From assembly GCA_002633005.1 (NCBI GenBank), contig NMRA01000220.1:228444-292443 (forward strand): a DNA stretch of 64,000 bases, in the 5' to 3' direction. Positions 18,451 to 59,469 of the stretch are shown one piece after another. The notes under the pieces are model-generated. The model saw only the letters and a program-made list of their open reading frames with translations, ran no database searches and was not told the DNA's origin. The position numbers and the translations under genes were made by a program. Position 1 is the stretch's first letter, and each line of letters starts with the position of its first letter. Source of the DNA: Phoronis australis (Eukaryota > Animalia > Phoronida).

Positions 18451-19099
18451 TAGGCCAGTCACAAGTGGCAAGATGTTGTTTAACCTGCCTGCTATATCGG
18501 AATATATTTGATGTTGAATTTTTTGTGAAGACACTTCTAACATTGAACTTTGATAATTGCTTTTGAAAAAACTTGTCTTGCTAAACGTGGCCCTCGTATT
18601 TGGGCATTTTTGTGAAGTGGCCTTACTCTGACTGACAAGAGAATTGAGGCTACTCTTTTAGCTCGGAGATATCACCTCAAATATATGATCTAATATCAAC
18701 AATGCAATACCACAAAAGTTTAAGTTTCACTTTTGAGACCCCAATTTTCTAAAACACTCCATTCTTTGTTTAACTTAACCAATAGTACTTTAGGGTTCGA
18801 GATTACATGCATTTCCTGTCACTGCAAAGAATATAGAGGAATTTTTTTCTTGTTCATTTGGTCAGTTTTTGTTACATAAGTGTGATCACGGAGGAAATGT
18901 GAATTACAGTTGATTCTTGCCAGAGCTGAAGATAGGAGGCTGGACTGGCAAACCAGTGGAAATGCCTCGTTATTGGTTTTACACATCGACATGAGTTTGG
19001 ACTTGGCTTTAGACAAAAATTGAAGTGCTGTTATCCAGAACACGCACCATATTGTAAGAGGGAAAACCAGAAACAAGCAAAACAGGATCTTGTGTCATC

Positions 19100-30200: not shown

Positions 30201-33200
30201 TTGACAGGCAGACGTTTTATATGTAAAAGTTTCTACCGTTTAATTTGCCAATAAGTTTGGTGAAAAATGACGAAATGAAGTCGTTTATCTAAGATATCCT
30301 AACAGCACGTTTTCGAGTTAAAACGCAAAATTTCATATTTTTCGAAAAATTTACTGAAATCTGCGAAACTATCAAATTAGATAGAACTTTAGACAGGCTT
30401 TCAGAAGATATTTTTCATTTTTCGGTAAGATGTTTACTTTTTTAATTATTCGAGATTTTCTAATTAGCGCTGCATGGATGTTGGTTTAGCGTCTATTGAA
30501 CAAGACTATAGCCTATTTCTTACTGATTTATGACATTTAAGTTCGTCATATGAATGTTTGTTATGATGTTGCTCATCATCGCCGCTATCATCCTAATATT
30601 GGTCATCTTCGTCATCATTTCCGTCGTCGTCTTTTCAGTTAATTTCGCCAAGTGTCACTCAAGACTGTAGCCTGATTTCTGACCTCTACGTTCATCATAT
30701 GAATGTTATCATTACTTGTATTGTTCATCATCGCCACCATCGTTGTCATATTCATCATCTTCGTCATTATCTCCATCGTCGTCTTTTCTGTTAATTTCGC
30801 CAAGTTTCGCTCCACGGAGCGCTCTCGTTTTTTTGTACGCACGATACAGGTCGCAATTTTCATCTGATCCTCACGAAATGTACACACAACATGTAGTTTT
30901 AGAAGTACTGGAAGCCTATTGTTTTTCGTCAAAATCGGTTCCAAGATGGCGGACGTGGAGGCCATTTTGTTTTCAATTTAGATTCAAATGCTCCTGGAGG
31001 CTATAATTTTTGACGTACAAGACTGAAAATCGACACATTTATTTCAGCACACGTGCTACATGTGTACCAGAAATTTTTTACTTCCGAAATTCACACACAC
31101 CTTGTATTCCCGGAAGTACTGGAACCCTATTGTTTTTTTCACGATCGGATCCAAGATGGCTGATATGGCAGCCATTTTTTTCAGGTTCAGATGCTCATAG
31201 AGGCCGCATTTTTGTTGTACACGGTTGAAAATTGGTAGAAATATAGAAGTGGAAAAGAACTATGAAAAACAACGAAATCATGAACTTCCGGTCAAAGATA
31301 GCGGAAATATTGGCAATAGCGCATGCGCACCTCGATTTTGGGCTGAAAACGTTTTCTCCTGTAGAGGCCGCATTATCAGACCAATTCCTTGAAAATTTTT
31401 CAGGAATTTTTTATGATATGCTATTATTTAAAGCTAAAAAAACGGAAATTGCTTTCAATATGGCGGATCTCGCACATTTTGACCCATTTTCAATCGTGCT
31501 GGGGTGCCATTTTAAACGGGAAAAGAAAATAACGGGATTTTTTGCATGTGGATTCTCTATTTATATGGCCTGTAATATTTTTTCTCAGACTTATTGTCTT
31601 CGAGTTATTAGACTTTGAATTTGAAAAAGTTTCAATTTTTCGAAAAATTTACGGAATTTTGCGAAAGTACCAATTTACAGATAGAGTTTTAAACGCGCTT
31701 TCAGAAGATATTTTCCATTTTTCGCTACGACCTCTAATTTTTTATTATTCGAGATTTTCTGATTCTGCTGTTCCTTTGTTGAACCCTCTTCTTACATTGA
31801 TGTAGGTTTAGCTTCTATTGAACAAGACATTAGCCTATTTCTTGCTGATTTACGACATCTAAGTTCGTCATATGAATATTATGACGTTGTGCATCATCGC
31901 CACCATCATCATCTTCGTCGCCATCTCCGTGGACGTCTTTTCACTTAATTTCTCTCAAAACTAGCATATGTACTGATTTCTGGCATCTTAGCTAGACACA
32001 TAGTGTTGTTCATAATCGCCACTTTCATCAATGTAATCATCGTCGTCATCATGTCAATCGTCATCTTTTTTCGGTTAATTTCGCCAAGTGTCGCTCCTCC
32101 GAGCGCTTTCATTTTTTGTTTTTATTGTTTGTTCTCGAATGATCACCAATCGAATTAAAAAAAGATTTTATGTCAGTTAGCATATGAAAAAGTTCCCAAA
32201 TTGTCACATTAAAAAAGTCCTAGCGTGCAACTATATTTTGCGATTACTTCGATGACAACAGCGTTACCTACCGTTTCGTTCGATGTTCGTAACTACCGAA
32301 GCCGGTATGAACGGTTTTGTTAACTTCGCTGTTTACGTCGACGCCCCGCTGAGACCGGAGTTAAGTCAGTATGAAAAGGCCTTTGGACAGCCGTCTTTTC
32401 AACTCATCAAACTTGACATTTTTCTAGTAGAGATCCCATGTTGTAAAAAATGAATATGTTTACCAACTAAAGTTTTAGGGACACAAATATTGAAAACCCT
32501 CCTGACGATGTTGTGATAAGAAGAACTCCTCTGCAGTGTTTTCCATTCCCAGAGTGAAAACTGATGTATCCACGGGAAAAGATATCATTTGGTAGGGATT
32601 TTGAAAAGGCATTTTTATTGGAAATCGGCACTGTGAAAAAAACTCATCTGAGCGTCATGTACCGTATGTACCTTCAGCAGCTGGGTACTTCTGTAGGCAT
32701 TTCTATCGTTGAACCTTTCCTGTCAATGTTTTCAGGAATGCGAGAATGTTTTTATAGACTGCTAATGCACTTTAATATTGACCCTGATACATAATACTGT
32801 CATGTTTGTTCTTATATTGAACCTTTGCATATGCTGGCAGCAAATTTTTGTTGAAGCAAGTGGCATTAAACACTACAGTTCCGTGAACTCGAGGCTTGTC
32901 ACAAATTATCAAAAATTCTGCATGTTGTGGATAAAAACACTGCAAACGAAAGTATCTTTTAAGACTTAAAAGTCTTTTTCATCTGACATATATCGTTCAG
33001 TAATTTCTTTACATCTGCAACATGAGTGACCCGTTTTTGAGAAAGTGCCAATGTTTCCGCTAGTCCATCAAAGGGATTTAACAATACATGTCGCCAGGAT
33101 TTTATTGCACTATTTCTTTCTTGGACATCGTACCAGGAAAATTGTCGTCTCCTGCCACTCCATCTCTCCACTAAAGTACAAAAAATCGTGTATCAATATC

Positions 33201-36200
33201 AGCATACACACAAGAAGAGATGAATCGAGGTGACGTTTCTCTAGACTTCACACTCGGTCATAGTTTGTATCTGGAATGTCGCTCATATTGTCGAGTTCCA
33301 GTGACATAAATTTCAAACTTCAAAGTCACATACCTTGGAATTATAGCATGCCTGAATACTTCGTGTGGTCTTAATGTTGTTTTCACAAATCTCACCTGGT
33401 AAGTGTTAAATTTGACAACTTATGAAATGAAAATCCCAAATGTGAATTTCGCTGTTGTACTTACAGGCTTTACGTCACAAAGTTTGGTAGTGCAGCAGGA
33501 TGTTGCTGCAGTTGTCAAATTTCTAGTAGTGACGTCATATTCTGCAGTTGAAGCATGGTTTATCCAAAAATTTACACATTTGAGAGACTTGTTAAATGAC
33601 AACATCGTTTCGACCCTTTCAGCTACGTTGATCCGTATTACCTCATTCAACATGCCAACTGTATTACTAGGTGGTCCATTAGAAACACGGCATTAAACGA
33701 TGTCATCGTTTGACCCCGGAAGAAATAAATCGCTTGATATTTCATCTAAAACTTCTTTAAGTGTGATATTATCTTAGATTGATCCCACGGAGGATTTTAC
33801 AACTGCTTGTAGGTCTCTGACAATTGTGAAACATAACACAAAAGTGCCGATTGAGGATTTACGCTTCAAGGACACACAGGGCGCAAGAATTGCTTTTTTG
33901 TTCTGACAATCGGACACTATCGCGTGTTTACGACCGCCGAAAAATCAAATGAGAATGCAACTGATCAAACTATTAAAACGTGTAATAACTTTGTTTTGAA
34001 ATTGTTAAGGTCACGAGCCTTCTTTTGTTCGTCTTTTGTAATTAAAATCAAACACTAAGACCGCTGTTCGGAACTTTCAGAATGTAGCACCTCTGTCAGA
34101 CATGACATTTTAGCCGTTGTGTGACGTATATGATGACTGGTTCTTTCAGATTTTATAATGATTTGCGGCTGACCATTGTGAAAAACAAACTTCTGTACGA
34201 GACTCCTCAATGCACATCATTAAACGAGTTTTTGTCTTCCTGTTACGTATTATTCCCATCACCACAATCTCAACTAGTTTCACGTTCGATTGATCTTAAC
34301 AAACTAGCCTATTGTGTTGATACACAATGCTGTGGTAGTAAGGAGTGTAGTACCCACTCCTTGGTGGTAATAAGCAAGTCACAGCTTACAATCACACAAA
34401 GGAATCAGCAAGTGAAAGTTAAGTCTAATGTCTCTTAAAGTAAACCGTTTCGAAGTTTTTTGGTGATAGTATTTCATACAAAAAACACCTTCTTCACTTT
34501 ACTTGTTGAAAGTCGTTTGGAAATAGTATTTTTATCATCTCTTAACGTCAGGGGCTCTGTTTACAACATAATTCCTGGATTACGTGAGCTTTTCAGATGA
34601 GCGCAGACAATGAGAGAGCTGGCTACGTAAAAATGGTTTGCAAACTTTCTCTTCTTACTATCTGTGTCAAATTGATAGCAACAAGGCTGTATCCCGACTA
34701 GCCGATCAATGAAATCGGGATACTCGTCCCACAGCGCGGGTGCGTCACTGGAGGATCGCATGCCGCAAGCCGCTGCATCCAGATGTTTTTTATAGTTTGT
34801 AGGCTTAGGGAGTGAGAGAGGGAGAGTAGTGAACCAAAATATCATCAGGGTATTCGAAATTGCCAAGCAACCTGATTTTCGGCAGTGCGGAAAAATCAAG
34901 TCGTCGGTTTTCGGATTGTGATATATTTTATAACCTTATGATGACTCTCTGTTTCAGCAACTGAAGGTCCAAAGGTAGAGGTGAAGCTAATAAACTCTCT
35001 GATGAACGGCTATGAAATCAGTGCAAGACCCGTGGAAGAATTCAGTGATGTAGTGAACGTCACGATGGATGTCGCACTGAATCAAATATTTGACCTAGTA
35101 AGTTATGAATAAGCCACTTCATTTGACTTGGTTGCATATCGCAAAATCATGCGAGTTCGTCGCAACTTCGACTTTGTCACCAAATGAAATATGCAAGCGA
35201 GGATTGTGCGTTGCAGATCGTCTGCTTGTTTTCATGAGCAATGTATACAGAAGTCTGACACATTTCTGTTCCATTTACATACGTTGTTTTCTTTTGCAGG
35301 ACGAAAAGAACCAGATTCTGAAATCGTTGATTTGGCTCAGACTGGTAGGTGCAAGGCATATGCATAATGGTAAAACATCTAAACATTTAACACTTGTTAG
35401 ACTGCTTTAAACGATGGTAGGTTTCACTAAAACACTGACTCATTATGCATAGGCCTACTTCATTTAAATCAAGTTAAACATATCCACTCGCGATTGAGGA
35501 CTTAAAAACTCAAAAATCAACCAACTCATATTTACCGTGTATGCGCGTATTTACGCCCATGCGCTAATATGTAAAACTGTGCCTACATCCGGAAACAGCA
35601 TACCGCCATTTGATTTATACTACATGATCAAAACAGCCTCCACCTATATCTCCCCATGAAGGTACTTATGAAAGTTAAAATAATAAAAAAAAACAATCAA
35701 CGTTGACTGGCGTTTTTAACAACTATTGGGCCTTCTAGTTTTAGTTTTTGGCGTCTGTTTCAATATCGAAAACATTCTCAGAAACTTCGTGAAATTTGTC
35801 GTGCATCTTTTTATTAGCAAGACGATGGCGACTGCATATTTGCCAAGGATCAAACCCGTGCTTTTCCTCCGGTGACCGTTATTGGCGTCTGCAGATCTCT
35901 AGTGAAACGTGTTCAGGATCGAACTGATGATAACGATGAGAACATGGTAGGCTGTGGTTTTCCGATGGATCGGGTAAATTACTGCAAATATCCAACAATA
36001 TGCAGCATGTTTTTGTATATCTTCATAAATCTGGCACAGATTGCAATATAGCTAACATTCACAGGGGCGGATCCAGGGCTTTGAGTTGGAGGGCAGGCCA
36101 GAGTATTACCGAGTATTACCCAGGAAATTGCCCGACAGACATTCGCACATCCCGAACTTCCAAATCGAATCTGAGAAAGTTTTAGGGGGCCCCCTTTGCC

Positions 36201-39200
36201 CCCCTCTAAGTCCGCCACTGACTCAAGGGAAGACACTTGTCCATTCTTGCGTAAATCTGATTAATGATCCATCGCCTGCGATTGTCTTAATTTTGTTTCA
36301 GCGAAACACCGTAAAAGCAAGTTCGCTTGCTTTAGACATTAATTTTCTGAGGCCACTGAAACTTAGCAGACATGTTTTGAAATCAAGGCCGCAACCGCTA
36401 ATGTGGTGTTGAATTCCACTTGCCTACTGCGGCAAAAGATTGACGTCCACCAAGTCAAGCGAACCATGCTCATTAAATTCAGCTTGTATGATTTTACTAA
36501 TGAGAAGATGTCGCCCATCAATTTTTAGGACAATTTCCACTGTGGCCCACGAGACTAGTTGGAAATAATGTAATACCGTGTTCAGACGTGGACTTTACAT
36601 TTGCAGGTCGTCTGTTCAGAAGGGAGATCCACTTGTTATAACGAGCCTTCATGAAGGCATCCGATCAGCATCTGTGATTTAGCGAGTGACTACCTTAACA
36701 TTAAAACACGAAATGTTAATATTTTGACCAATCACGTGCGATCGTGGGCGAACAGAGCCTATACACACACGATTGTGGTCTGAATCTTACAGTAAGAGGA
36801 TAGGCTTGCCGTCTGATTTTGGCACGGGCGACAGAAATGCAGACCAGACTTCTGACAAGCATTCATGGTTTATATGTGAATTTTTCGAACGTCCGGTCTG
36901 CCTTCGGATCTGAAACGTTAAAAGGTCAACAAGCGCAAAATTTGTTATTTTGTGTCCGAGCCACACCATAGTTACATAAACAGTTAAAAGTGAATCTCAA
37001 ATATGACCGCTAGTGTGAGTTTTGATTTATGTTGACTTTAGAATGGCTGCTAAATCGGCAACGGCACCCTTTCGTAGGAGATTCTGTGACTGAAAGGCAC
37101 AATTTCATTGGGAAACTGGTCGTGAAAAAGTCACTTTTCTTAGCAGCACGTCCCGCATACCTCTTCTTTATGGGAGTACCCCCCACAAGTAGTCATTCAA
37201 AGCGCAGTTGTTAAACAGACACCTTTTGGAGAACTCTAAGACTACAGTATTATGGAAACATTCGAGACTTTTCACATATCCTTGCATTCTTTTGGGTACA
37301 GAATTGGAGAGACGAAACGTTGAAGTGGAACACTTCGGCTTACGAGGGGCTTGACTTAATCACGTTTGCCGTCTGCCCGAATACGGTTGCCAGACTTGGT
37401 TGTTTGGAACACGTACATGTAAGTGCGACTTCCAGCTTTATGACTGGTCGAAGTTTTTGTTGCAGAATTGGATCGATTACGGTCTGAAATGGAATTCTTC
37501 AAAATACGAGGGATTGAAAGACATCACTCTTGCATCCACTAGAGTGTGGCGCCCAGACCTAACTTTGTGGAATAAGTAAGTCCGCGAAAATGCATCCGTC
37601 ATCGGACGACAGGATACATGCTTAAAGTTTTGGACCAAAAGTACGGTAACAAGACGTAGAAGTAGCTTTAACACCCTGTGTACAACCTTAAAGCCCTACA
37701 CTGTTCGTTGCACCATCGGTTCTATCGCAATAATTGAAAAACAATTTTTTGTTTTTCATTTATTGGTTGCTTTAGAGATCAACAATATAGCCATACACAA
37801 TTTAGCAGCTTTTTGTTATGCTTTATTGCATGTGTATTCAAATTACATTTCTGCTGAACTGGCACTCAGCCTCATAAAATACAACGAGATTAAAAATAAT
37901 TATTTCAAGGACCGCGCAGGATTCACCTAACGGGCACATTGTGAAGCATTAAGTTTCGCGACCGAATTCCTGCAAAACACGTAAGTTAAGCGTTTTTACA
38001 GAACTCAGGGGGCACAGAACTGTTCTCATTGGGATCTGCCTAGCACACATCAATGGACTTTTCACCTTTTTTCACTCTGCAAAGGATGAAAAAAAATGAG
38101 TTATTTCACAAAAAAAACTTACAGATGAGCACAGAAACTTTATTTTGTTTAGTTTTATTTTTGAACATTCACTCCTACTGAAAAGCAAGGTAGGAGCAAA
38201 AACCACAAAATTGGAACTTTGCACCTCAAAACCACCACTTCCCTGCCGATAAGTGACTTACAAACTCTAAAAATATGGTCCAATTCTAGGTTGTTTGAAG
38301 GTTACCTGAAATCGCAGCAGATTTTTCAATCGCTACGCAGAAATACAACTACACTATAGCGGACTGCCATCTTGAAGAATAGTGCATCTACAGCCGAGCA
38401 AGTGGCCTTTTTTCATTCTCAACCAAATTCAATGAGCGTACTGTTCAGTGCAAATTCAGCCCTGTTTCATGTGGCAATCCGTAATCCCGGGAGACGCAAG
38501 TATGGCATATGTTAAAAACACGAGCACCGACCTCAGCCACGTGATTCACGCTTTTGTGAATTTGAACTTTGAAACTTGAATACGACACAGCTGCAGTTTT
38601 TCATTGAATTGTGTTGGGGTGATAACTAAAGAAAACGAGTACGTTTAGCTAAATATGTTGTTTTGTCGATTCTTGAGATTGAGATCATACATGTACTAAT
38701 TTTCTGTATATTGTGGATTTCTTCGCCTTCAAAAATATTGAATTTAACGATAGATTATAGACAGAAGATGCACAACTCCGACATTTTCTTGCGTATCCTA
38801 GAGGAGGTGCCACTCCCCTAAATTACAATTTTCAGTTTCCGGTTAATGTATTGTGACGGGAAATCTATTTTACTGTCCAGTACAACGAAAAAAAAAATTA
38901 GGTATTGAAACGCTGTTCAAAGTCTTCCAATAGTAGAACTGTTTGTATCGTGAATACTCTTAGCACCTAACCACACAACAGCCGACCATGATAAGCAGAC
39001 GACATACTTGCCGGGAGTAAAACTTGTTAATTTTGCCAGGTGTCGCTAGTGAATAATGATCGACGTCTGGGCTTCTGCGTAAGATCACAGATTTGGTCCA
39101 TTGAAAAAAAAAGGAATTGGCGGTCAATGTACTTTTGTCTATTACCAAACAGACGTACAAAGGTTCACGCTTTTATTAGCAATGACAAGCGTATAACGCT

Positions 39201-42200
39201 TCTGTGCGTTTGAAAAAAAAACATATTGAAGATGAAACGTTTATTCTAGCGCCGCGGATACGTTTGCTCTTGGCCAAGACACACAAGTAAAGATCAAAAG
39301 CGACGGCTCCGTTACTTGGAACACGCCTGCTACGATAGAGAGCACATGCGTGGTTGATGTCAAGTACTTTCCATTTGATGAACAGGTAAGGCTTCGTTCC
39401 GTATCTAGAGACCATTTCTTTTGAGAAAAGGGCAACCATGCAAGTATGTACGAAAGCAAAATAACATGTGTCCAGTTTCCGAGATTTTGTTCGCATTATA
39501 CCTTTCTTCGGGACCATAGTCACTTTCCTTGTTCCTTTTCTCGGTTTAATTTGTGTGCTTGCAAGCAGAATGCCCAAAATATACAAAATGCTTAATGAGA
39601 CTCGGAATATGTATTCTAGTCTAAGGCCAACGTCCTATGTTTTACTCAATTCGACACGTTAATTATCGTATCCAGTTAATATATGTTCAGTTCGTGAAAG
39701 TCGAAAATCCAGTCTAGTTTCATTCTCTTGTTCAAATTTTCAAAAGAATGCAAGAATTATACATGTAGTTGTAAATACAATAAGCGCATTTTAGCATTGT
39801 CACTTGTGACGCGTTATACAATGCAAATCAAGATATTCACCGGATGAATTTAAATCTAGGTCAGCGGCCGGGGTCGTGGCACCTCCGGGTGCCGGTTCAC
39901 TGGGCAGACAACGTTAGTATGATCGCGAAACTACGTAGAAGTTTTCGGGAACTCATGGCGTCTTTTCTCACCCAGACTATCTCGCGTTGTTGTGGCCGAG
40001 AATTTCCAAGATTACGGCATTTCTTGAGTTCAGTTCTGACAAGAGCAGCTACTCGAGTCTCGCATGGTGTCGGCTTACACGCGAGCTTTATCCTCCAGTC
40101 TGACACAAATCATACTGAGTTTGATACTTCCGTGGCATAGCAATGAAAAAATGAGCAACCTTTCCAAGCGATACTAAAGACATTTGATTCTCTCGGCGTA
40201 GCAGGTGGGTTCTTTACTGAAAAACCACCATTATGATCTCAACTCCGAATGACAGAGGTTTTCAAATCGAGGCTAATTCCACTTATCAACCTTGTCTATT
40301 GTGAAACGGTCCCGTGGTGGTTTGTCCGGCATCAACGTGCAAGTCAACTGTCTATCGCGTCCAAAAAGGCGAGGAAGCCAAATGGAACTACTTTTAACGG
40401 ATACCATAGCACCGGAACATAGCGCAACTTAAAAAGGACCCATCTTAACTTTTCACGAGGAATTCAATTTTAAAAGACAAACAGGTGAAAATCACCAGTT
40501 ATAGTCCACGATGTATCAATAAATTTAAGCCAGTGTTTGATTGCCGTGAAGACGTAACTAATGCGGTACATTGCAGGGCTCTAAACAAAAGAAACTTCGG
40601 CGTTTCCGATAAATGGGTTTCTTGAAGACAGCGGTTCTTGTACAAATCTATTGACGAAATACTAGGAGCCCTAAAATGACCCTTGTTTCAAATGTGACAA
40701 ACAATGGCCTTTGCATGGGGGGGGGGAGATTTTTGTACGGAATTTGATTGGACAGGTTGCGCGTAAACGAAGCGGATGTGTTCATGCCATCTTTTCCAAA
40801 AGTGCCGATTTTTATTGGAAAATAACGACTGTTTGTATCCAAATACTTTTTAAACCCTTTTACATTTGCCATAATTTTAAAACAATTATATTTCTAATAG
40901 GGCTACACGAAGCCTTAAGCTTCTGGTCCAATATTCGTGGCAACGGCCAACTGACCTCTCCATCAACTACCTCTCACGTGCAATTACTTTTTCGGATACA
41001 CACAATTATTGAAATTGAAAAAAATGCTGTAAAATCTCGACATTGAAGCTACCAGCAGACGACAGCAACGTTTAATAACAATGTGCGATTCATCATTCCA
41101 ATCACTTTGATCATACATGTATTTCCTTTCAGACTTGCATTCTGAAGTTCGGTTCGTGGTCATTACATGGCTTGCAACTCGATTTATTTTCAAAGAACGA
41201 CACTGGTGACACGGCTTCGTTCGTTGGTAAGAAAAGCTTGTCATAAATAGACAATGGGTGCTTTTGAGTATAGACAACTAGAACAGTCTAAAAAGTTTGT
41301 AATGTAAAGAGCCCGCCGCCTTAATTTCGTTTTCCGCCTATTTTTTGACACGTGACAGCTTTCAGTCTAGCAGCAGGCAGCAGGGAAAAATGAATCTTAA
41401 TATGAGAAGAACGGATTCAAAATTATAAAAGAAAGGCGAGAAACGGGAAGCACAGTGTTGCGAAAGTAACATCATCGGTTGATTTAATTATCTGATCATT
41501 AAATCTTGAAGTTAACATCAGCTTCTGTAGCAGTTATTTTTAGCGACTCCTCAACTGAAAGTCACACTAAACGTTTTCATGAGCTGGACATGTTTTTCAC
41601 ATGGAGTTTAGTATTGTGACAGTAAAGTAAATGAAATTGGTTTTGAGGGGCGACACGACAGTAGCTAGCATCCAGTAATGCGGTCTTAGATCGCAAAATA
41701 AAAATACCCCTCCTTTCATCACAACCCCCTTCCAGTCTTAAGGTTCGTCTTTCCAGTTGCTGTCCGTCATTCCCATTTTGGGTCAGTCCATCCCACCGGC
41801 AGTCCAAATTTCATATTGAATAATACAGTCTGTGCCTGGAAAATGTTTTGCTCGTCGTCCATATCATGCTGTCTTTTCGATGAACAGCGGCAATTCAGAG
41901 ATGGAGTTGAGGTAACTGTTTTAGAAGAGATCAAATGATCGATTTTGGCATTTTTTCTGGACATCATTTATGCATCCCGTCTTCTTGCACGTAATTTTTG
42001 TTTTCAGGTAACGGTGAGTGGGAGTTAGTAAAGTTTCCGGTCAAGAAAAATGTGGTGTTCTACACATGTTGTCCGGAACCTTATCATGACTTGTCCTACG
42101 AAATAGTCATCAGGAGAAAGTCATTGTACTACGTGTTCAATTTGGTGAGCTTCATTGTTACGTCGAAAAGTAATATAAAAGTAAAGTAATCCCGCTTACG

Positions 42201-45200
42201 CTCGTATTCTCCACAGGAATACGTGTGGTACACGTGCTCTTTTAGCTAGGTTTACCATGGTGCATTTCAGGTGACAGCTTAAGGAGACTTTTTATCTAGG
42301 TTTTGTAATCTAAAAAATCTTTTCCTAAGTCTGAAATGCTTTGATGAGCAAGGTCCAAGCTAATTCGCCATTCGGTCTAAGCCCGGAAGCATCTAATCTA
42401 GCAGTAGTGACTCATAACAAATAATGAGAATGGAGAATGATTTGATGGCCACAACCGTTTTCTTTGCGCAAGTCACTGTTTTTGTGAGTGAAAAAAGACT
42501 GACCGATTAGCAGACCACCCAATGACGTCTCCAATCAAGTAAATGAAAGTAAACACCGACACGACACTTTGAGTAAACTGAATTGTTTCCGCTTAATTTA
42601 GAAGTTACACGTAGTTATTCGCGTTCAGCACTTAAACGTAAAATTTCATGTTGGTCTTGCATTTACTTCGTAACCCAACACTAGCGCATTATCACGACAG
42701 GTTAATATCTACGGTGTTGGCAGATGAAAAAAACATGTGGTAATATCGGGCATACATTGTAAAAGCAATGGTAAGCGACCGTAGCTTCTGTTCCTTCATT
42801 TGCTTGCAAAATTGCCTCTTTGCCGAACTACTTTTTAGTGTAGTCACGAAATGTCGCCGATTTCCACGACTGGTGATTTGGAAGATCTAGTGAGCACCTC
42901 ATGGATCAGACGGTCTCGCCACCTGGTGACTGACCGGTCTTTAATTGTTCCACGTCATGATGAAACCATGTTTTGTGTGTCGAGCAAACATAAAAGCATA
43001 CCGTAACTTCAAATGAATTCGGAATGCACCTAGAAAGCATCATTGATTAACGGACTCAATCACGGTAAATATTCCAGAAAAGAAAGGGCCCTGCCTGCTA
43101 ATCGACATCACACGGATGCTGATGAGAGCGAAATCCAAATAGGGGGATTGACCTATGTGAGAGAGATGAGGGCGAAGCCCTCAGACAGCTTCGCGAGATC
43201 GGAGGATCTCGCCTTCTGTCCTTGCTGTTGTTGGTGTGGACGCGGATCGAGGGCAGGACCTGGTAGGCCGGTGGTGGTAGAGGTGGTGTGCTTGATCTTC
43301 TTCTGGAGACGAGACGCTGGCTGGATGGCAACAGCGTTATTGACATCGTAGAGGTGAAGCTGGCTTGATGGCAGCAGCTTAGAGTTTGATTCACATGAAG
43401 CCGGCTTGTTGGCAACAGCTGTCATGCTACTGATTGGTTGTCTTTATACTGCCCCGTCGGGACAGTTTTTTTTTTCTTCCGTTGTCTTTATACTGCCCCG
43501 ACGCCCCTTCGGAACAGTTACCAGTGGCACAGGGCCCGAACCCTTAGTGCTCCGGTGGCAGGTTGTCACGAAATTTGGTTGTCTGTATACTGCCCCGTCG
43601 CCCCTTCGGAACAGTTACCAGTAGCGCAGGGCGATTGACCTATACTGTATCTCTGTAATTATTATATGTAACTCACCATGAACCAAGTCGCTCCTGGGTC
43701 AAACTAACTACTCGTGCATTCATTGCGTCATCGGACAGAATAATTCAGTTTCAATTCAAGTCGTATATTTGTAAAATTTATACGAACATGACAATTACAA
43801 AAGTTAGCACCATCAATGATCCAACGAACTCGCTTGAGAAGCCTATCACACAATCGGTGTCCATTATGTTATGGTTGGGGGTCTATGCAAGAATGTTGAC
43901 GCGTGACTTTCGTAAACTGTCCGACCTAACGCACCATAGCTTGCAAACCACAATAGTGATAAAATTTAGCTAATTCATCCATACATTCAAAATAATTCTC
44001 AATTGAAGTCGCGTACTCGTAAAACTCATGAACATGATGTACACTGTATCAGCGGAAGAATACCAAAGAAGACTGACCTAGTTGAACAGCGAGGACAGGC
44101 TGAACTCGTCACTATCAGAAAAATTGTGGGTGGAATTTTTCGTCAAAATACCATTATAAATTAAAGTTAATACTAGTAAGGAGTCTGGTATTAGATTCGA
44201 ACGCGAAGTGGTTGTGTTGTTTACCCGGTGACAACGCGCGCAGGCAAGTTAGATTGTATCACCATTGCGGTTTGCACACCATGGTGCGTTTGGCCAGATT
44301 TTTTACGAATGTCTCGCACCAACATTTCTGCATAGCTCTAACCAACTCACTATAGACACCGATTGTGCAGTAGGCCTATCCTGTGGTTCGTTGGTCAATA
44401 TTTGAACTGGACGATTGCGCGCGTACAGCTCACACGCTACATTGGATACAAAACGAATACGTAGTATGTCTGTCCACCAATACTGTTTCACGGGCCGGGG
44501 TGAGTGCGATGAAGAAGAACATGTAGGGAAGTACCCAAGACGTTGGCAGTCATGTCCGATTTTATTTTGTTAAATTCAAAAGCGTGAATATAAAACATGA
44601 GCGGTGCATTGGAAAAATTGACCTATCGCCAGGATTATGACGGACGGCTTAATTGACCAATCAGAACGCAGCACTCTTGGCGCACATTCGTCTGCGTTTC
44701 CAAGCCGCCATTTTACCCGACAAGCCACACGTAGTCGAGTAAAACTTACTTTAGTCTATAGCTCAAGAAATTGTCCGCTAAGAATGGGGAAATGGTGTTG
44801 ATATGACATGTGTAGCACCGACAGCCGTTATGCTGCTCCAGAATAATACCCCGTCATTTTGGCATGTCCTAAGCCGAAAACTGATGTTGAAAAGCGTAAA
44901 CTATGGATCAAACTGTACGGCCACACGAGCAGCTGCACTTAGCGATGTTGCTTGATAACTCAAAGGCTATAATAAACACAAATATATTAGTTCCAAGATA
45001 CGCACTTTTCAGCTTGGTGGCTATGGTGCAGGGCTATCTCAGTCTTGCCGCCTTTGTCTCGGCACCTGCTGGATCTCAGCACTCTAGCTGTAGTCCCCGG
45101 AAATTTTTGTTTTCAAGTACACTTTATTTTATGTTTTTTATTTATTTCAACCTAATGGACATTATTTTGTTTCGTATCAGAGGTAAATTTTCGTTATTCA

Positions 45201-47902
45201 TAAACCGTAAGCTGGCGTTCGTTCACTGAACTGAACTTCTCTCCCGGTCAAAATTCAGAGATTCGATCGGCACAGGGAAGGGCACTGGATTAGTGCCGGA
45301 ACTCAAAGCCTTGGTGGAGCTGTTGTCACTTTTTGACGTGTACCTCTAGTATACACTATGTATGTAGAGTTAGAGAGAGCTCATTTTGAAGTTGTCCAAA
45401 CATGATATTTAGATTTATGAAGCTTTAAAAAGAATTTGAGTTATTTTGTAAATACCCTATTTTTGCAACTACCACACCAGACTTGTAATCTTTTGTAACC
45501 ATACCACGACTTCGTGATCATGCTACCTTCAAAATTAAATGAAAGCTACCTTTATGGAATGAAACTACAAAAAATGCCAAGTTCATAAGAAGGTAGGCCT
45601 AATTTAAATGTCTTAATGGTGCAAACGGAGAATTCGATAGGCGGATTTAGGGGGGGCAGGGGCCCCAGCCCCCCCCCATTGGCTGCCGCAAGCAAAATGA
45701 AACAGCAAGAGCGTGAGGAAATACTGAGTTCAGTAACTAGGACTGGTAGCGGAAGAGGGGGGGTGGGGCTCAGACCCCAGATCGCGGCGGAATCGTGTTC
45801 CTGTTTTTTTAGTCCACCGATAGATTTTCTGAACAGAAGGTCCAACGGTTTACATCCCTGGCCCCTGCAACTTTCGGGCCGCCTGTGCACATACAGTTGC
45901 ACTTTGCCCAATTCCACGAGGCAACATATGTTGGCCCCCCTGTGGTTTCTAAGATTCGCCACTGAATTCCAGACATTAATTTTACTTAGACACTGCCCTA
46001 GACCTACAGGAGCTAACTGTTTGGCCAGGACGAGATGAGTGTGTACCTGCAGCTATGAACCTGAATTTTTTTAATCAAAATATTTCGTTACAAGATTAGA
46101 AAAGCGTAAACAGTGCTATCGAGTCGACCTACATGTAGTCAGACACTATAGTGCATGTGTTGTATGTAATCTATGACCTACTTTTCATTTGGCGAAATTT
46201 AGCAGACGACAGAATAAAAACATCGGTGGATCTTCACTGATTTTATTCGAAAGATCATGAAATCTATAGAATCGTACAGATAATTCGACTTTAAGGTACA
46301 TACCCAGCTTTTCATGAACATATCGTATCAGTGGCCTTGTTATTTGTCAGGTGAAGGTGGCCCCGAGGCCGAGGGGTTCTTCGGATTTTCGCTGGCCCCT
46401 CGAGCACTAATTTTTTCATCGTCACCTTTACAAATTTCCATATCATGAACGTACGATTCACTGTTGAAAAGCATCGCCTCTTGTCTCTGTCGACGCGTTT
46501 TCAAACAGTACAAAAACACTCATCGATTCCACCAGGAACGTCGTTTAGTGACAGTGTATTTGCCTCTGACATCTCGTTCGAATGTCGGGTATCACGTGAC
46601 TTTTCGGAGCTTGCGATAGGTCAATTAGGACAGCGAAGCCAACGGATGATTGAGAATTTACAGATCTTGCAGCTTTTGTTCCGGCGGAGGTTCTCGAAGG
46701 TAATATTTTTTCCAAAACTGACCTTTTGCCTCATCCGAAAATGGGTCCAGACATTTTTTTCGAAAATTCACCCCTTACGACATCGTGTGTTGGAGCAGTG
46801 TGTCCGGACTCTCCTGGACCCGTGCCTGGAGTGAGCGGGTAGCGACTCGGCTGGGGAGTGGTCATTGGAGGCCATATCATAAGAATGAAGTCGTTTATTG
46901 AACCAAAAATAACACCTGTGCTAACTTGCTTTATTTCCCGACTTGATGTTTAAGTCCCGTTTCAAAACAACAAAAATGAAAACAAACGACATGGCCATTG
47001 AGAATAATGAGGGTACCAATGCAACATACATATTACGACCCAATGTTTTGAGACTAAGTTGTAACAATCGACCTACGTCACTGAGTGTAGAGGGTTTTCC
47101 AAGGTTCTGTAGTGCATCCATCGATTAAATATAATTTAATTTATGGCGTTGTCATAATACCAAAATAGCCGCCGATGTAGGGCTCAGCATGTCTTTAAAG
47201 GAACATTTCCTTTAAATACACTTCCTATATGTGGCAATTTATAAACAAGTTGCCAAGGCACACAATTAAAATTATGTCACTGACTGCTAAAACCACGACT
47301 GAAAACAAACTCGAACTGCAGTCAAGTTGCACGAAAATGGATAGTGCTGACGCATTTCCGCTATACATCTCTGTGTCCTGTTTTGCTAAACTTAGTTGAG
47401 TCGTTCAGACAATAATTTTGGTCAACCAATATTTTGTTGACAACTGGTTGGCACAGTACTCAATTTCGTCCAAAAATCAAGTTGTGCTGACCCATCCCAA
47501 CCATCAACCCTCGTGTGAAGTTTGATAAGAATCTGTCAAGCCGCTTTAATTAACAATAATCGACAGACAAGGGAATCTTGTGGATGCAAAAAAATGCTGT
47601 AGCATTGTCAAAACTCATATCGATTATTACCATATACATGTAGGTGAATTTTAACTGAACATAGAGTGTATGCGTGCATCAGGAAAACTAACCGGGTCTG
47701 GTCAATGATTTGTAAACAAGAGCAACGCACTACCGCACTGCAAACAGTATGCTACTGGGGACTTTTCATAACATATCATATAATTAGATTAACGACCAAC
47801 GGCAACCAGGATGTTGACTGTATGCTACCACAGCAAATATTTTAAATAAGTAACAGGGAGTAAATAAAACATGACAATTAATATTAAAAAACTAGTAAAT
47901 TG

Positions 47903-47970
<68 letters not shown>

Positions 47971-48529
47971 NTGGATAGTGCTGACGCATTTCCGCTATAC
48001 ATCTCTGTGTCCTGTTTTGCTAAACTTAGTTGAGTCGTTCAGACAATAATTTTGGTCAACCAATATTTTGTTGACAACTGGTTGGCACAGTACTCAATTT
48101 CGTCCAAAAATCAAGTTGTGCTGGCCCATCCCAACCATCAACCCTCGTGTGAAGTTTGATAAGAATCTGTCAAGCCGCTTTAATTAACAATAATCGACAG
48201 ACAAGGGAATCTTGTGGATGCAAAAAAATGCTGTAGCATTGTGAAACTCATATCGATTATTACCACATAGGTGAATTTTAACTGAACATAGAGTGTATGC
48301 GTGCATCAGGAAAATTAACCGGGTCTGGTCAATGATTTGTAAACAAGAGCAACGCACTACCGCACTGCAAACAGTATGCTACTGGGGACTTTTCATAACA
48401 TATCATATAGTTAGATTAACGACCAACGGCAACCAGGATGTTGACTGTATGCTACCACAGCAAATATTTTAAATAAGTAACAGGGAGTAAATAAAACATG
48501 ACAATTAACATTAAAAAACTAGTAAATTG

Positions 48530-48614
<85 letters not shown>

Positions 48615-51085
48615 CAGTGATATAACAATTATAACAAAATTAATAAATAAATAATGAAAACAAGAAATACAAATACATGTAAATTGTAATAGCAGCGGCA
48701 AAAGCTACGTTGCCTTTTTACGGACTGGAGCCGACGTATTTGCTGATGCTATCATTTACATCAAAAAACGACAGGTTAGCCGCAATTAAATTAGTTGTAC
48801 TTAGGTTTGCCTTAACAAAAAGTCAGATCGCACCGTCCTTACAACATTTGTCTCCATCTTTCTTTCAGGTCTTTCCTGTTATCTTGATTACCATGATAAC
48901 TATGCTGGCCTTTTATTTACCTTCCGAATCTGGAGAAAAGGTGGCGCTAGGTGTCACGGTTCTGCTTGCCATGACTGTTTTCCTGCTCGTAATAGCTGAA
49001 AACATGCCAGCCACGTCCGCTGCAGTTCCTCTGATAGGTACGCAATCGCATTTAATTTAAGTAAAAAAAAGGCATAAGACCTATTTTGTAAGGGTGCTGT
49101 GCTGTTGTTAGAGGAGGCGTGTTTTATTGCACCCTTAAGGCTTAGATCAGAAATCTCGTCAATCCTCCACATACAGACTTCCGAAAAATAATTTCACTTC
49201 AGTGTGGCAAAGAATAAATTCTTTCAGAAAACATCCATAATTTCTGATAAATTGGATAACTCTTGTAAATTATTGCTCAACTGTGAATGTGCATGGAAGA
49301 GCCAAGTGAGAGAGGTGGACCCAATTTTTGACTTGGTTTTTAGTCGTTTGAATGCAAAACACCCCTCCAAACTCAGACTTGACTGAGACTCATAGTCGAA
49401 ACTAACCAATCACACGGTTTACTTAAAAGTGGGCCATGGCGTAAGTCGAATTTTGATCCGAGTTTCGACACCTTAATGTCCATGCAATGATTGTGACTGG
49501 CCCAATACTGTACACTAAGTACATGTATGCCTTAGCGGGGTGCTAGGCTATTAACATTTTACATTAAACATACGTAAAAACGATGCAATAGAGTGCTACC
49601 CTCGTCAACACGCAAAGGTTAGGAAAATGTTTGAAAATTCTATGCAAAGCCTAATTAAACGACACAAGTGACTAACGCTTTGGGTAAAAGACCGTCAGAT
49701 CGAACCATACGATGCTCTTTCTGATAACGTTAGCTGAATAATATTTTTATCTGACGTCCTCAAATCGATTTGAGGTGCATGTGTTCTGTGATAACATGAT
49801 GTCGAATGTCCCTTGGTCTATTTACACTAATAATTAGCATATGTTCATTGGCACGACGTTCCTGGAGGAAATATTCCATCGCCCATTTCCCCAGCCATTT
49901 TAAGACGATCGAGCACGGGTATCAAACCTCACCAGGAGAAAAATGATAATCCAACGTCTGTCGCACCTAGGCGCTACCTAGAGTTGATCAGTTGACTCAT
50001 GCACCATATACACAATGGATTACCATTATAAGGTTTGCTCCTAACATAGACGGAATGGAGAAAATTTATTACATGTGTAAGAACAGTTTTCGATGGTATG
50101 TTGACGATACGGTATCTAACTTCCAGGACAATTCTTCGGAGCCACCATTGTCATGCTTGGCCTATCAACTGCCATGACGGTTATAGTACTCCACATCCAT
50201 TTCAAGGGGAGCGAGGAGAAACGCGTTCCACGCTGGTTACACAACTTTGTCCTTGTATTCTTAGCCAAAGCCATGTGTATGTATCATTCCGAGGACAAGT
50301 GTGCAGAGGAAAACACGCCACTGGTGAGTAGGCCTAGAGCTTACGAGAGGATTTTCTGGGTCTTATAATTATTCCTCTTACAAATTACCGGGAATATCTC
50401 TTTCTCGCCGCCCAATGGCTGGAATTTTCACTTGGGGTGAAGTAACCACATTCCTACAATTCATTGCACGCATGCTGTTTCCGTCGCCTTAAATGGTCAA
50501 CAGGAAAGTGTACTGGCACCTAAACCTGGTGCAACGTAATGGGTAATTTCATTGATATGCTATTTTTGTCAGAAATGGCTGTTATAACTTCATCTTGGAC
50601 AAGAACATGTTCACTACGTGTGTAGCTACAACTCGACCAGCGAGTTTGAGGAGAAATACATATACATGTGCTCTCCAAGTCAGATTGCCTAGATTTTGAG
50701 AAAGGGTTTGATGGAAATCAAATTAATTTGACGCTTAACTGCCATCTTTAACACATTTCAGACAGGATTTGCGTTGACGTACAACACTCCAGAAAAGTTT
50801 AGGATAGAGACCATAAAGTACACGAGTCAGCAGGGCAGTAACAACCACAGCATAAGTAAAACAACCGACGACATGACTGTTAATTACGAAATGCTGCTAC
50901 GTTTGAGCAGCTTGGAGCAAGCAATAACCACGCGGTTGTATGAAGATGAGAAACAACAGAGTTTAGACAATGAATGGAGAAAAGTAGCGCGAGTCATCGA
51001 CAGATTGTTCCTTGTATTGTTCTTAACGTTTACTTTAATAACATGGTTAATCATTCTTTTGAACAGGCCAAGTTCTACGTTTTAA
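24245..51085 (+). CDS. CHRNA9-like: Nicotinic acetylcholine receptor alpha subunit (alpha9/alpha10-like, cation channel), complete gene, 467 aa; join(24245-24296,34958-35097,35300-35344,37466-37575,39250-39385,41133-41226,42008-42144,48869-49037,50127-50323,50762-51085)
   Basis: All introns are GT-AG with compatible phases, giving 1404 nt in frame. Signal peptide, Cys-loop [15 protein letters not shown], loop B GSW, loop C YTCCPEPY with vicinal Cys, GEK before TM2 and four TM helices are present. Confidence 0.9.
26467..26762 (+). mobile_element. tRNA-derived SINE
   Basis: A-box-like TGGTTTAGCTCGTCGG and B box GGTTCGAATCC, followed by a non-tRNA body and a ...GCATTAAAAACACTAAA tail. No full cloverleaf. 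Confidence 0.6.
27174..27500. mobile_element. Foldback (Crypton-like) non-autonomous element
   Basis: An imperfect hairpin of about 170 bp at 27328-27497: GATAAATACA...GGCATAGATTAAGTAATATCC pairs with GGATATCACTTCATCTAAGCC...TGTATTTATC. Confidence 0.55.
30250..32125. repeat. Tandemly arranged Helentron/DINE-like repeat with CAT/CGT microsatellite-like segments
   Basis: 30300-30830 resembles 31600-32120. Both end TTAATTTCGCCAAGT..CGCTCC...GAGCGCT followed by T runs, with internal CCAAGATGGC...GCCATTTT motifs. Confidence 0.55.
34958..35097 (+). CDS. nAChR exon 2
   Basis: tttcag|CA ACT...GAC CTA|gtaagt, 140 nt, encoding [40 protein letters not shown]. Confidence 0.93.
35300..35344 (+). CDS. 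nAChR exon 3 (loop D)
   Basis: ttgcag|GAC...CTG|gtaggt, 45 nt, encoding [15 protein letters not shown]. Confidence 0.95.
36062..36220. mobile_element. MITE (CAGGGGCGGATCC...TCCGCCACTG), imperfect 5-bp TSD ATTCA/ACTCA
   Basis: TIRs plus internal similarity to 10206-10342 in reverse orientation. Confidence 0.7.
37302..37412 (+). pseudogene. Duplicated nAChR exon 4 (exon 4a), frameshifted pseudo-exon
   Basis: ggtacag|AAT TGG AGA GAC... encodes [21 protein letters not shown], then after one extra T reads [15 protein letters not shown]. 111 nt against 110 nt for exon 4b. Confidence 0.85.
37466..37575 (+). CDS. nAChR exon 4 (4b, loop A)
   Basis: ttgcag|AAT TGG...AAT AA|gtaagt, 110 nt, encoding [36 protein letters not shown]. 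Confidence 0.93.
39250..39385 (+). CDS. nAChR exon 5 (loop E, first half of Cys-loop)
   Basis: ttctag|C GCC...GAA CAG|gtaagg, 136 nt, encoding [36 protein letters not shown]. Confidence 0.95.
41133..41226 (+). CDS. nAChR exon 6 (end of Cys-loop, loop B)
   Basis: tttcag|ACT TGC...GTT G|gtaag, 94 nt, encoding [31 protein letters not shown]. Confidence 0.95.
42008..42144 (+). CDS. nAChR exon 7 (loop C, pre-TM1)
   Basis: tttcag|GT AAC...AAT TTG|gtgagc, 137 nt, encoding [45 protein letters not shown]. Confidence 0.96.
43436..43636 (+). repeat. Short direct repeats (TGTCT.TATACTGCCCCG.CG, three copies)
   Basis: Three copies; the last two extend with CCCCTTCGGAACAGTTACCAGT.GC.CAGGGC. Confidence 0.7.
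43815..44400. repeat. Diverged inverted repeat (arms about 43815-43970 and 44248-44400)
   Basis: CACAATCGGTGTC...CTATGCA...TTCGTAAA...AACGCACCAT...TGCAAACC.CAAT.GTGATA is matched in reverse complement. Confidence 0.65.
44784..44995 (+). pseudogene. Degenerate THAP-domain exon of a DNA transposon
   Basis: [15 protein letters not shown]...[23 protein letters not shown], homologous to 12942-13158 including an upstream TTGACCAATCAGAA. Confidence 0.6.
45636..45964. mobile_element. MITE with 5-bp TSD AATTC
   Basis: AATTC|GATAGGCGGATTTAG...AAGATTCGCCACTG|AATTC. A partial related copy lies at about 53108-53300. Confidence 0.75.
47338..48610 (+). repeat. Near-identical 630-bp tandem duplication with (TA)n tracts, probably two alleles joined at a contig junction
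   Basis: 47338-47970 and 47972-48610 differ at only a handful of sites and are separated by a single N at 47971. Each ends in a (TA)n microsatellite. Confidence 0.85.
48869..49037 (+). CDS. nAChR exon 8 (TM1, TM2, TM2-TM3 linker)
   Basis: tttcag|GTC...ATA G|gtacg, 169 nt, encoding [56 protein letters not shown]. Confidence 0.96.
50127..50323 (+). CDS. nAChR exon 9 (TM3, start of intracellular loop)
   Basis: ttccag|GA CAA...CCA CTG|gtgagt, 197 nt. Confidence 0.94.
50762..51085 (+). CDS. nAChR exon 10 (MA helix, TM4, stop)
   Basis: tttcag|ACA GGA TTT..., encoding [30 protein letters not shown], with TAA at 51085. Confidence 0.94.
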   Translation, partial: TGFALTYNTPEKFRIETIKYTSQQGSNNHSISKTTDDMTVNYEMLLRLSSLEQAITTRLYEDEKQQSLDNEWRKVARVIDRLFLVLFLTFTLITWLIILLNRPSSTF

Positions 51086-53603
51086 ACTATTGTCGAGTAT
51101 CCATGGAAATGGACGTTGATAGAAGCTGTTTAAATTGAAAGATGGAGATCAGTTAGTTGCTCATACGAAAATGTAAAAGATTTATGTCTGCGTTGATTAC
51201 GAACCCGCTTATTCATCGGTTGAATTACACTTAAAGATGTTTCAGATGCAATGGTGAAAGAGCCAGTGTAATCACAATTTGTTCTGAGCTAGAACTCCTT
51301 ATCGTCCCAGTTTGTTCTGGCTGCTTAAACAAGCAATGCAGATTTTTCCAGACAGACCCACGTTGTGCCACAACAAGATACAGTGTGAACCAAACAGAAC
51401 ACAGGGCAAATCGGGAATAACTTGTGCTCAGTGTTCGTGCATTGTAAACAGGGTATCACTGGAAATAACAACGAAGGATTATTGAAAAGGACAACAATTT
51501 GTTATCACACAATGTGCGAGGGGTGTTGTGTGTGCGTTTGTTACCGACGTGAAGGGACGCACTGGGAACAACTCCAACTAAATGGAGAAAGACCTCACTA
51601 ATGTATATAGTAAAAGGAATTCGTGTACAGCACTTATCAAACCTTAAACTTACGGGCTTACATAGAAGAAAAAACAAGGCGTTGTTAAAGATTCTCATCT
51701 GTTGGAAGCGAATACTAAAAGGAGAATGTAGTTGACTGATACCTTTTGTGATTAAATGGACGTGCATGGGCAACAAAGCCTAGTCATGTGCTCAAAGCAA
51801 CTGGTACACGTTTTATCAAAGATCTCTTGTGATGTAATACCCAAAACTGGTGTCCATTTATCAGAGGCTTCTTTAAAGTGCAGGTGTATGAAGAGTTTCT
51901 TACAATGTGAATACGGCGTAGGTTTGACTTTACCTGCAATGCTTAGTTCGTTTCAAAAGCACAGCCTCGCTTTCGCAGCCATGTGCTTACGACCGTGTTA
52001 GCTGCGACTGGGCGTGCGAGTCGTTTGATGAAAAGGTCCCTATAGAAGATTAACGAGAAAGTTTATATTAATCATCAGATTTATCACTAGACACGCACTC
52101 GTGTCTGGCAGTTTCTATTAAGACTATGGAGAGACTGCTTTATTTGTTAGTACAATGTACCTCAGATGCGAGTAGTTTGTTCGTTGGGTGTACACGCGTA
52201 TGTAGATTTTGCGAAGACAATCGTCAGAGGTCCGTTTGGTACATGTAATGTGAAAACAAATATGTTGCCAGCAAACTGTGCCTCGGTCGTTTCACAATGT
52301 CTGTGATATTGTGAAACAAGGACATGTTCGAACACTTACAGACAGGCTTAAATGAGCCAACTGCCTTTTAGGTATGTTAAATACATGTACTTTTGTGCAA
52401 CATATCTTTGTTTCGTTTTATTCCACACAACCATTAACTAATTAAAACACATTTTATGCCCCCCATAGTATGTGTCCCCATCGGAAACCCCTTTTATCCT
52501 CTCGACGAATCACAGTAGACTGGTCTATTGACGTCATCGTTGTGAGCAACACGTTACCTCACTCGTACCACAACATGAGCAGCTGATCGGCTGCCAGGAC
52601 AGAAAAAATATGTAGTTTGCTCAAGGAATGTCACCAATTAGAAACATCGCCGACGTTAGGCATCAATGTTAATTGATAATGCAATTACTAAGCAAAAAAA
52701 TCGTTTCAGGTAAAGCACCCTTCGAACCGAACAGCGGCGTAGGTCTCAGATAGGGCGCTGTGGATTCACCCACGACCCACAACGAACCAATTTTCGAAGT
52801 ATTTGCACACATGTAAAATGCCATACAACAGCTACGTTTCGTGCTAAATCTGACAACGGCAAACTTACCGAACTCTGTGGTGGAAATAATATTTATTTTT
52901 CACGTAAGATGTCTTGATTATCCACTAACAATATCCCCGACAAATAAATCATCGCGGCACTGGTCGGTACCATTTTATACGATCATGACTCAGAATTAAA
53001 TGTCGTCTATTAACGGTGTGTGTGAATGTACGTCTCATTTTTAATTCAAAAAACATACATGAAGATGACAACCCAAGGCCGTTACTTTCCAAACGACGGT
53101 CACAGCTCATAGGCTGATTTAGGGGGGGCAGGGGGCCCGCTCCCCCCCCCCCCGTTTGGCTGACGCAAAAAATAAAACAGCAAGAGCGTAGGGAAACGTT
53201 GAGTTTATTAATTAACCCCGGTAAGTAAAGTTATACGGATGAAACAAGATTTAAATGTGTGCAGTTTTAGTGTTTGGGGGAGGGGGGGGTCTCAGATCCA
53301 ATTTCAAGTGTCAAATTCGGAACCCGGCGCATTCGTAACGGACCTATGGCTAAGTACAGGCTCTCCCGCGATATCCCAGACGACGGGCAGGGGCGCTGCG
53401 CACTACGACTCCGTTTCCGTCGTCTGCTCCACAAAATACATTGCCAGTGTCGTCTCAAGTTGGTGGAATTTTAAAACTAAGAGATCTTGCTCAGGCGATT
53501 AGATGCCATATGTCCTAACACGGTGTCGTCATTGTTCAACACAACTACTGCATTTCCCAGTAGTGCTGCCTTAACCAGCTCGCGCGGTACGTAACAGAAA
53601 TGG

Positions 53604-53751
53604 CATGGAAGGCGCAGCACTGAAAAAAGTGGGGGGCTAAAGCCCCTTCACCCCCCTGTGGTGCACCGACTCTAGCCCACGTGCGGCGTAGCTCTGAAAG
53701 AAGTGGGGGGCTATAACCCCCCCACCAGCCTCCTATGGTGCGCCGCCCATG
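53604..53751. mobile_element. 148-bp MITE with CATGG termini and apparent 4-bp TSD ATGG
   Basis: ATGG|CATGGAAGGCGCA...TGCGCCGCCCATG|ATGG. The empty site CAGAAATGGGAGC is at 9391. Confidence 0.75.
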
Positions 53752-55099: not shown

Positions 55100-55182
55100 A
55101 CCCCTTCGACCCTCTCGACCCCACGCCCCTCGATCCACGACCCCCTCGGTCCACAACCTCTCGGCCCCACGACCCATGACAC
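55100..55182. repeat. Degenerate short tandem repeat (CCCC.CGA-like units)
   Basis: About ten imperfect 8-9 bp units. Confidence 0.6.
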
Positions 55183-59468: not shown

Positions 59469-59469
59469 A

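Follow-up and report, generated by a model that had tools for sequence, protein, structure and literature searches.

Two nicotinic acetylcholine receptor (nAChR) genes of insects provide the closest described systems. In the alpha6 subunit gene, alternatives of two exons, 3a/3b and 8a/8b/8c, are tandemly duplicated and used one at a time (PMC1919356, PMC2064938); the altered regions listed in the Bombyx paper are loops D and E, the Cys-loop, TM2 and TM3, loop A not being among those listed. The insect alpha4 gene has exons 4 and 4′, two alternatives for the loop E and Cys-loop region, of which 4′ is reported to affect assembly (PMC2064938, PMC2045683). Rules for validating mutually exclusive exons are available from the human atlas of Hatje et al. 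(2017; PMC5740500), where a donor-to-branch distance below 50 nt is given for 9% of clusters and a length that is not a multiple of three for 60%. A later human survey reports that ion channels are enriched for mutually exclusive exon pairs, with no mention of CHRN or acetylcholine in its main text (PMC9741552). After gene duplication, paralogues can separate splice isoforms between them (PMC4494069, PMC4417111). Tandem copies account for 55% and 65% of nAChR genes in two bivalves, and the main text of that report mentions neither alternative splicing nor mutually exclusive exons (PMC6896357).

Here we describe two versions of exon 4 of an nAChR subunit gene, 4a and 4b, in a 64,000-nt stretch of Phoronis australis DNA (the window). 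Like the insect alpha6 alternatives, they are tandemly duplicated exons of a nicotinic subunit gene that are used one at a time; unlike them, they concern another exon in another phylum and include a broken version, whereas the cited alpha6 accounts describe no broken sister version. The preliminary description of this DNA had named insect alpha4 as a precedent. This stands as an analogy, both genes having two alternatives for one exon of the extracellular domain, but not as homology: the insect alternatives span loop E and the Cys-loop, the Phoronis exon corresponds to alpha1 residues 59-95 and ends in loop A, and the shared number 4 is coincidental.

A nicotinic subunit gene with two versions of exon 4

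The gene lies on the plus strand and comprises the following features.

34958-35097, plus strand: exon 2, 140 nt; joint 35097>35300; 5′ boundary from sequence only
35300-35344, plus strand: exon 3, 45 nt, with the loop D Trp
37302-37412, plus strand: exon 4a, 111 nt and broken here, 110 nt and intact in RNA reads; joint 37412>39250 in 4/3/2 sense reads of the three RNA runs
37413-37465, plus strand: the short 4a-4b intron, of 53 nt (47 nt where 4a is intact); branch A placed by motif guess at 37440 or 37443
37466-37575, plus strand: exon 4b, the intact alternative, 110 nt; RNA joints; Pfam PF02931; matches alpha1 residues 60-94
39250-39385, plus strand: exon 5, first Cys of the Cys-loop; RNA joints and sequence
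41133-41226, plus strand: exon 6, second Cys of the Cys-loop and loop B Trp; RNA joints and sequence
42008-42144, plus strand: exon 7, loop C with vicinal Cys; RNA joints and sequence
48869-49037, plus strand: exon 8, M1-M2 and GEK motif; sequence
50127-50323, plus strand: exon 9, M3; sequence
50762-51085, plus strand: exon 10, M4 and stop; sequence

With 4b, exons 2-10 (34958-51085) give an open frame of 449 aa; exon 1 was not found with the filter applied. The 45-nt exon directly before exon 4 is the one that we take to correspond to exon 3 of insect alpha6. The predicted protein carries the hallmarks of an nAChR alpha subunit: a C-x13-C Cys-loop, the vicinal Cys of loop C, PF02931 and PF02932, and the GEK motif, together with the loop B Trp and the loop C Tyr. 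It departs from them at Tyr93, the loop A residue of alpha subunits (PMC3820380), where both 4a and 4b encode Trp (37405-37407 and 37568-37570). Of 172 motif-bearing relatives, 153 have Tyr and 3 have Trp at the equivalent position, and the substitution may alter agonist preference. A quick tree of 30 chosen relatives places the protein in a 99% clade with proteins of Lingula, Lineus, Owenia and Capitella and one unnamed protein. Two members of the clade carry automatic alpha-10 or alpha-10-like labels, the tree includes no labelled vertebrate alpha9/10 row, and in the PDB exons 7 and 8 match alpha7 best and 4b matches alpha1 best; support for the name 'alpha9-like', given in the preliminary description, comes from automatic labels.

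Several other features were seen in the window. A 630-nt repeat (47338-47970 and 47972-48597, 98% identical, with AT repeats at its end) flanks a single N and is probably an overlap artefact of scaffolding. Repeated units of 0.5-1 kb, 74-82% alike, fill 55440-59510 and include a THAP domain on the minus strand (59217-59510, E 7e-7); they are likely remnants of DNA transposons. Open frames of 94-234 aa at 16104-20448 resemble mobile-element genes in decay (none of the 4 tested has a Pfam match), and nested direct repeats, CAT/CGT-rich and 71-80% alike, occupy 30327-32117, where the one frame tested had no Pfam match.

Exons 4a and 4b had been described as homologous but well-diverged copies 53 nt apart, forming an old alternative-exon system, and both the coordinates and the comparison of the copies agree with this. 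In the window, 4a extends from an acceptor AG at 37300-37301 over 111 nt to a GT at 37413, and 4b is followed by the donor GTAAGT. The two are identical in 65 of 111 alignment columns, with an alignment score of 79 against 5.6 ± 8.1 (maximum 36) in 2000 shuffles. In the form found in RNA reads, 4a is 110 nt long with phase 0/2, as is 4b, and 24-25 of 36 residues are identical between them. Synonymous differences are saturated (pS 0.80-0.84), pN is far lower (0.27-0.31; 0.27-0.28 for the read-type 4a), and pS-pN was zero or less in 1 of 2000 bootstraps. Saturated pS with pN of about 0.3 indicates that the duplication is old and that purifying selection has kept both exons.

Splicing was examined in three raw RNA runs that bear the same species label (X5, X6 and X7; three samples of one study, 18-19% of each). 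Sense joints in X5/X6/X7 numbered 8/8/2 between exons 2 and 3, 6/5/1 between 5 and 6 and 5/3/7 between 6 and 7. The 3-4b joint (4/4/5; 13 sense reads) and the 4a-5 joint (9 sense reads) were each present in all three runs, and 4b-5 was found in 2/6/9 (17 sense reads); these counts are small, and two mates of one fragment are counted twice. No 4a-4b joint is listed in 37280-37600 at a threshold of 3 reads, and sense read depth over 4a stops at 37412. A 3-4a joint is absent among the 15 of 64 joints listed; one X6 sense read begins at the 4a acceptor, 37301-37302.

Since joints bridge exon 3 to 4b and 4a to exon 5, while joining of 4a to 4b is absent or shifts the frame, the pair qualifies as mutually exclusive under the published rules (Hatje et al., 2017). 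The preliminary description was right in this respect: each exon is spliced singly in RNA. The human clusters and 4a/4b share these validation rules and both enforcing features, the atlas being one of human genes only. The first feature is distance. The whole intron measures 47-53 nt and the branch A predicted from its motif lies 21-30 nt from the donor, below the 50-nt limit; in the intact-type intron of 47 nt the branch point would be 21-24 nt from the 4a donor, and joining of 4a to 4b would be blocked by this closeness. The second is frame. As 110 plus 110 nt shifts the reading frame, a message with both exons (220 nt) or with neither would be frame-shifted and degraded. The window's own 4a departs from the same-length rule for mutually exclusive exons (111 against 110 nt).

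The two exons differ at alpha1-equivalent positions 61, 63, 64, 69, 71, 76, 77, 81, 83, 87, 91 and 92, and residue 95 at the junction is a 13th difference between the products; these residues are at the surface or flank loop A. By hand count, the net charges of the two are -2 against +1. The proposal that the pair tunes loop A holds to the extent that positions 87, 91, 92 and 95 flank this loop; they are the only ones to do so, both exons encode Trp as the loop A aromatic, and of the 12 differences within the exon 9 are N-terminal of the WxPD motif. The other differences lie in or near the counterpart of the alpha1 main immunogenic region, an outer loop. Because most differences are away from loop A, an effect on assembly would be as likely as one on agonist binding, and the 4a and 4b products probably differ in assembly or agonist sensitivity. 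Within 4b, X7 reads have variants at 37487 (Lys to Gln, 5 of 5 reads) and 37529 (Leu to Ile, 6 of 12).

An orthologue of the exon pair was not found in searches with exon 8 (44 matches among 83 candidates, best 77%), exon 5 (none among 5 candidates), the 4a/4b alignment (none among 8) or HMMER with 4b (158 matches, best identity 60% among the 150 listed). No swap of the exon 4 block was detected in 10 chosen pairs of isoforms or near-copies from 74 relatives' proteins. Two or more exon-4-like stretches occur in 28 of 224 proteins, in 5 with a spacing below 120 aa, and among those 5 only P0078 and P0081 resemble two whole copies of exon 4 at the protein level. P0081, a Tegillarca granosa gene model, has two diverged stretches 56 residues apart; the stretches of P0078 (Logan) are near-identical and also 56 apart, and those of P0077 (JGI) are partial and 45 apart. 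Independent duplications of exon 4 are possible in these proteins.

Broken and intact forms of exon 4a

The lesions of the window's 4a, and an antisense RNA that overlies it, are located as follows.

37365-37367, plus strand: TTT run with an extra T (frameshift), in X1 and X2 DNA contigs, absent in most X5 and X6 reads
37375-37384, plus strand: three amino-acid-changing letters of the window copy (37375, 37381 and 37384), by comparison with RNA reads
37413-37418, plus strand: 6-nt tandem repeat at the 4a donor, with a weak GT at 37413 and a consensus GT at 37419
36954-37483, minus strand: 3′ exon of the antisense RNA, with an uncertain 3′ end, overlapping 4a, the intron after it and 18 nt at the start of 4b
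38306-38404, minus strand: the antisense RNA's upstream exon, which lies in a multi-copy repeat (X1 depth 575 in the bin)

At 37384, CGG in place of TGG changes Trp to Arg in the WxPD motif. The 6-nt insert repeats the end of the exon and the GT almost perfectly in tandem; the stronger donor, GTAAGT at 37419, gives a 4a of 117 nt, likewise out of frame. The extra T, the Trp-to-Arg change and the donor insertion had all been noted in the preliminary description, together with the need to check the TTT near 37364 in reads. They are present both in the sequence and in contigs derived from DNA reads: the X2 contig (depth 52) has 0 differences and 0 gaps against 37280-37600, and the X1 contig covers 37039-37602 with 0 gaps. 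An assembly slip as the cause of the lesions is thereby excluded. X1 and X2 come from one sample, possibly the window's own source, and are silent on other animals. No contig with an intact 4a was seen in either, but contigs cannot show absence, so homozygosity is not proven.

RNA reads of the species carry a different 4a, the intact 110-nt form that the preliminary description had proposed to look for elsewhere. The extra T is absent in 97 of 110 reads in X5 and 71 of 84 in X6; for absence of the 6-nt insert the figures are 111 of 141 and 60 of 79. Most of the other reads end at the site or are shifted alignments. At 37384 the alternative letter, which makes the Trp codon, is found in all antisense reads (120/120 and 80/80) and in 5 of 5 sense reads. 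The deep evidence for an intact 4a thus comes from antisense RNA, and the sense reads have the same letters but are few; most reads that show the 1-nt deletion are antisense, and one X6 sense read seems to cross the site (bin depth 0.91). The expressed 4a is an intact 110-nt coding exon with Trp and a normal donor.

The window's 4a departs from the read-type 4a by 3 amino-acid replacements, 1 silent substitution and 2 indels (pN 0.036, pS 0.040), a neutral-looking rate at about half of the distance between the gene copies described below. Of the earlier statement that 4a was recently inactivated in this paralogue, the lesions are borne out as real in DNA, the five of them argue against 'recently', and the assignment to a paralogue is taken up below.

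Sister copy or allele

A region 44 kb upstream, 3571-12777, is 83-93% alike to 49497-60560 and contains the 3′ end of a sister gene copy and its flank.

4486-4682, plus strand: sister copy exon 9; pS 0.070 and pN 0.007 against the downstream copy
6751-7080, plus strand: sister copy exon 10; pS 0.087 and pN 0.028; the last exon reads two codons longer

The window contains no exon 8 for the sister copy, the 3.5 kb upstream included. In exons 2-3, X5 and X6 reads differ from the window by 3 silent changes over 41 synonymous sites, and in the introns by at least 17 of 348 letters. The synonymous distance between the gene copies, 7-9%, is about the same as that between X5/X6 and the window in exons 2-3, and X1 DNA contains both letter types in these exons. 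A constrained sister copy, the matching distance of X5/X6 and the presence of both types in X1 together suggest the sister copy as the source of the intact 4a. The neutral-looking rate of change in the window's 4a, and the window's exon 3 letter in X7 reads at the 3-4b joint, speak for the same reading. We lean slightly towards a loss of 4a that is specific to this tandem paralogue. As for the reading as a whole, that 4a and 4b are spliced one at a time and that the broken 4a is a real null, likely confined to one of two tandem copies, we consider it about evenly balanced. Under it, a tandem gene duplication would have been followed by retention of both exons in the sister copy; 4a in the downstream copy would then have been free to decay, soon after the duplication, and the window's copy would now likely produce the 4b subunit only.

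The tandem arrangement would resemble that of lophotrochozoan nAChR arrays (PMC6896357). Retention of only one of two homologous exons in a paralogue would resemble the published separation of isoforms, in which, however, each paralogue retains a different exon, long after the event (PMC4494069); here one copy would have lost 4a, the other apparently keeps both, and the dead exon is still readable.

That the broken 4a is a segregating allele has, in our estimate, rather less than an even chance. In its full form this explanation assumes the same mutually exclusive pair, with a null allele of 4a segregating at a single locus of high polymorphism; the upstream copy would be an uncollapsed second haplotype or not the source of the reads. 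It is tentative, falling clearly short of even. The visible variants fit two haplotypes per run, and between the two haplotypes of X5/X6 there are 3 differing sites in about 210 nt, as many as separate them from the window outside the lesions. Outside the lesions, reads and window have a single fixed difference in 37280-37575, and the sister exon 8, as noted, is missing from the window. X7 appears as a mosaic: 3 loose-end reads at the 3-4b joint have the window's exon 3 letter, while 4b-5 reads have 2 of 3 exon 5 letters as in X6 and not as in the window. An X1 contig likewise links X5/X6-type letters at 37082-37102 with the broken 4a, and the assembly has the probable overlap artefact at 47338-48597. 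Removal of bubbles during assembly can yield mosaic contigs, and the mosaic of the X1 contig possibly has this origin. Five lesions imply a long-lived null, which would be hard to keep at a single constrained locus unless they arose in one event, and they are weakly clustered (P 0.14 and 0.03). Moreover, there is no N from 6176 to 47970, the upstream exon 10 running gap-free into the 5′ part of this gene, and the non-coding distance between the copies is 7.5-9.6%. Inactivation in this paralogue remains the reading that we prefer, with a segregating allele fitting nearly as well.

Antisense RNA and the less probable readings

The antisense RNA is joined at 37483>38306 (CT..AC, minus-strand GT-AG) in 63, 31 and 0 reads of X5, X6 and X7. 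Its depth is about 60-145 in X5 and X6 and 0 in X7, against a sense depth of 0-6. Loose ends at 38404 occur in 75 and 52 reads, and the sequence beyond them was not found in the window. The RNA looks non-coding, with no ATG frame above 39 codons in 629 nt; Rfam had 0 matches in 33000-43000.

This RNA could act as a switch that pairs over the acceptor and branch region of 4b and shifts splicing to 4a, a role that we regard as unlikely. It does reach from 4a across the short intron to the acceptor of 4b, and the ratio of 4a to 4b joints to exon 5 is 7:8 where it is present (X5 and X6 combined) and 2:9 where it is absent (X7), but the difference is not significant (Fisher p 0.22 on reads, 0.39 on starts) and would also be explained if X7 expresses a copy without a usable 4a. 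X5 and X6 have heterozygous sites in common and may be one genotype. The RNA also begins in a multi-copy repeat, and together with the lack of a long ORF and of Rfam matches this means that it may be repeat-driven noise. A combined arrangement is quite unlikely: a downstream copy that is 4b-only, and a sister copy whose choice of 4a or 4b is controlled by the antisense RNA, driven by the repeat and masking the acceptor of 4b.

It is very improbable that 4a is a regulatory poison exon or a cassette used in frame together with 4b, as the preliminary description had suggested. Its frame arithmetic is correct for the window copy, where 4a alone leads to a stop in exon 5 and 4a with 4b is open to the natural stop. 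However, the broken letters are not evident in any read, the 110-nt 4a that is expressed is coding and would break the frame if added to the 110 nt of 4b, no joint between the two is listed, and by the 50-nt rule the intron does not leave enough room for one. Since the 4a in RNA is intact, with Trp and a normal donor, it is a coding alternative and not a poison exon. A dead-on-arrival duplicate or an assembly error, for which it may be said that the 10 pairs of relatives' isoforms or near-copies yielded no orthologue with two versions of exon 4, is ruled out for practical purposes by the spliced, intact 4a in RNA, by pN far below pS and by the lesions being reproduced in read-derived contigs.

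An either-or exon for loop A in a nicotinic subunit was not found in the literature searched, where supplementary exon lists might hold cases. The general phenomenon is well known, so that 4a/4b represent a new position for a known mechanism and a moderate surprise. They add the loop A exon to the nAChR segments that are diversified by either-or splicing, with RNA support and outside arthropods. An intact and a decayed version of one alternative exon within one species would offer a natural test of splice diversity against gene copies, and the 4a and 4b isoforms would provide a way to probe what role this segment plays in assembly and in the choice of agonist when a subunit has Trp in place of Tyr93.
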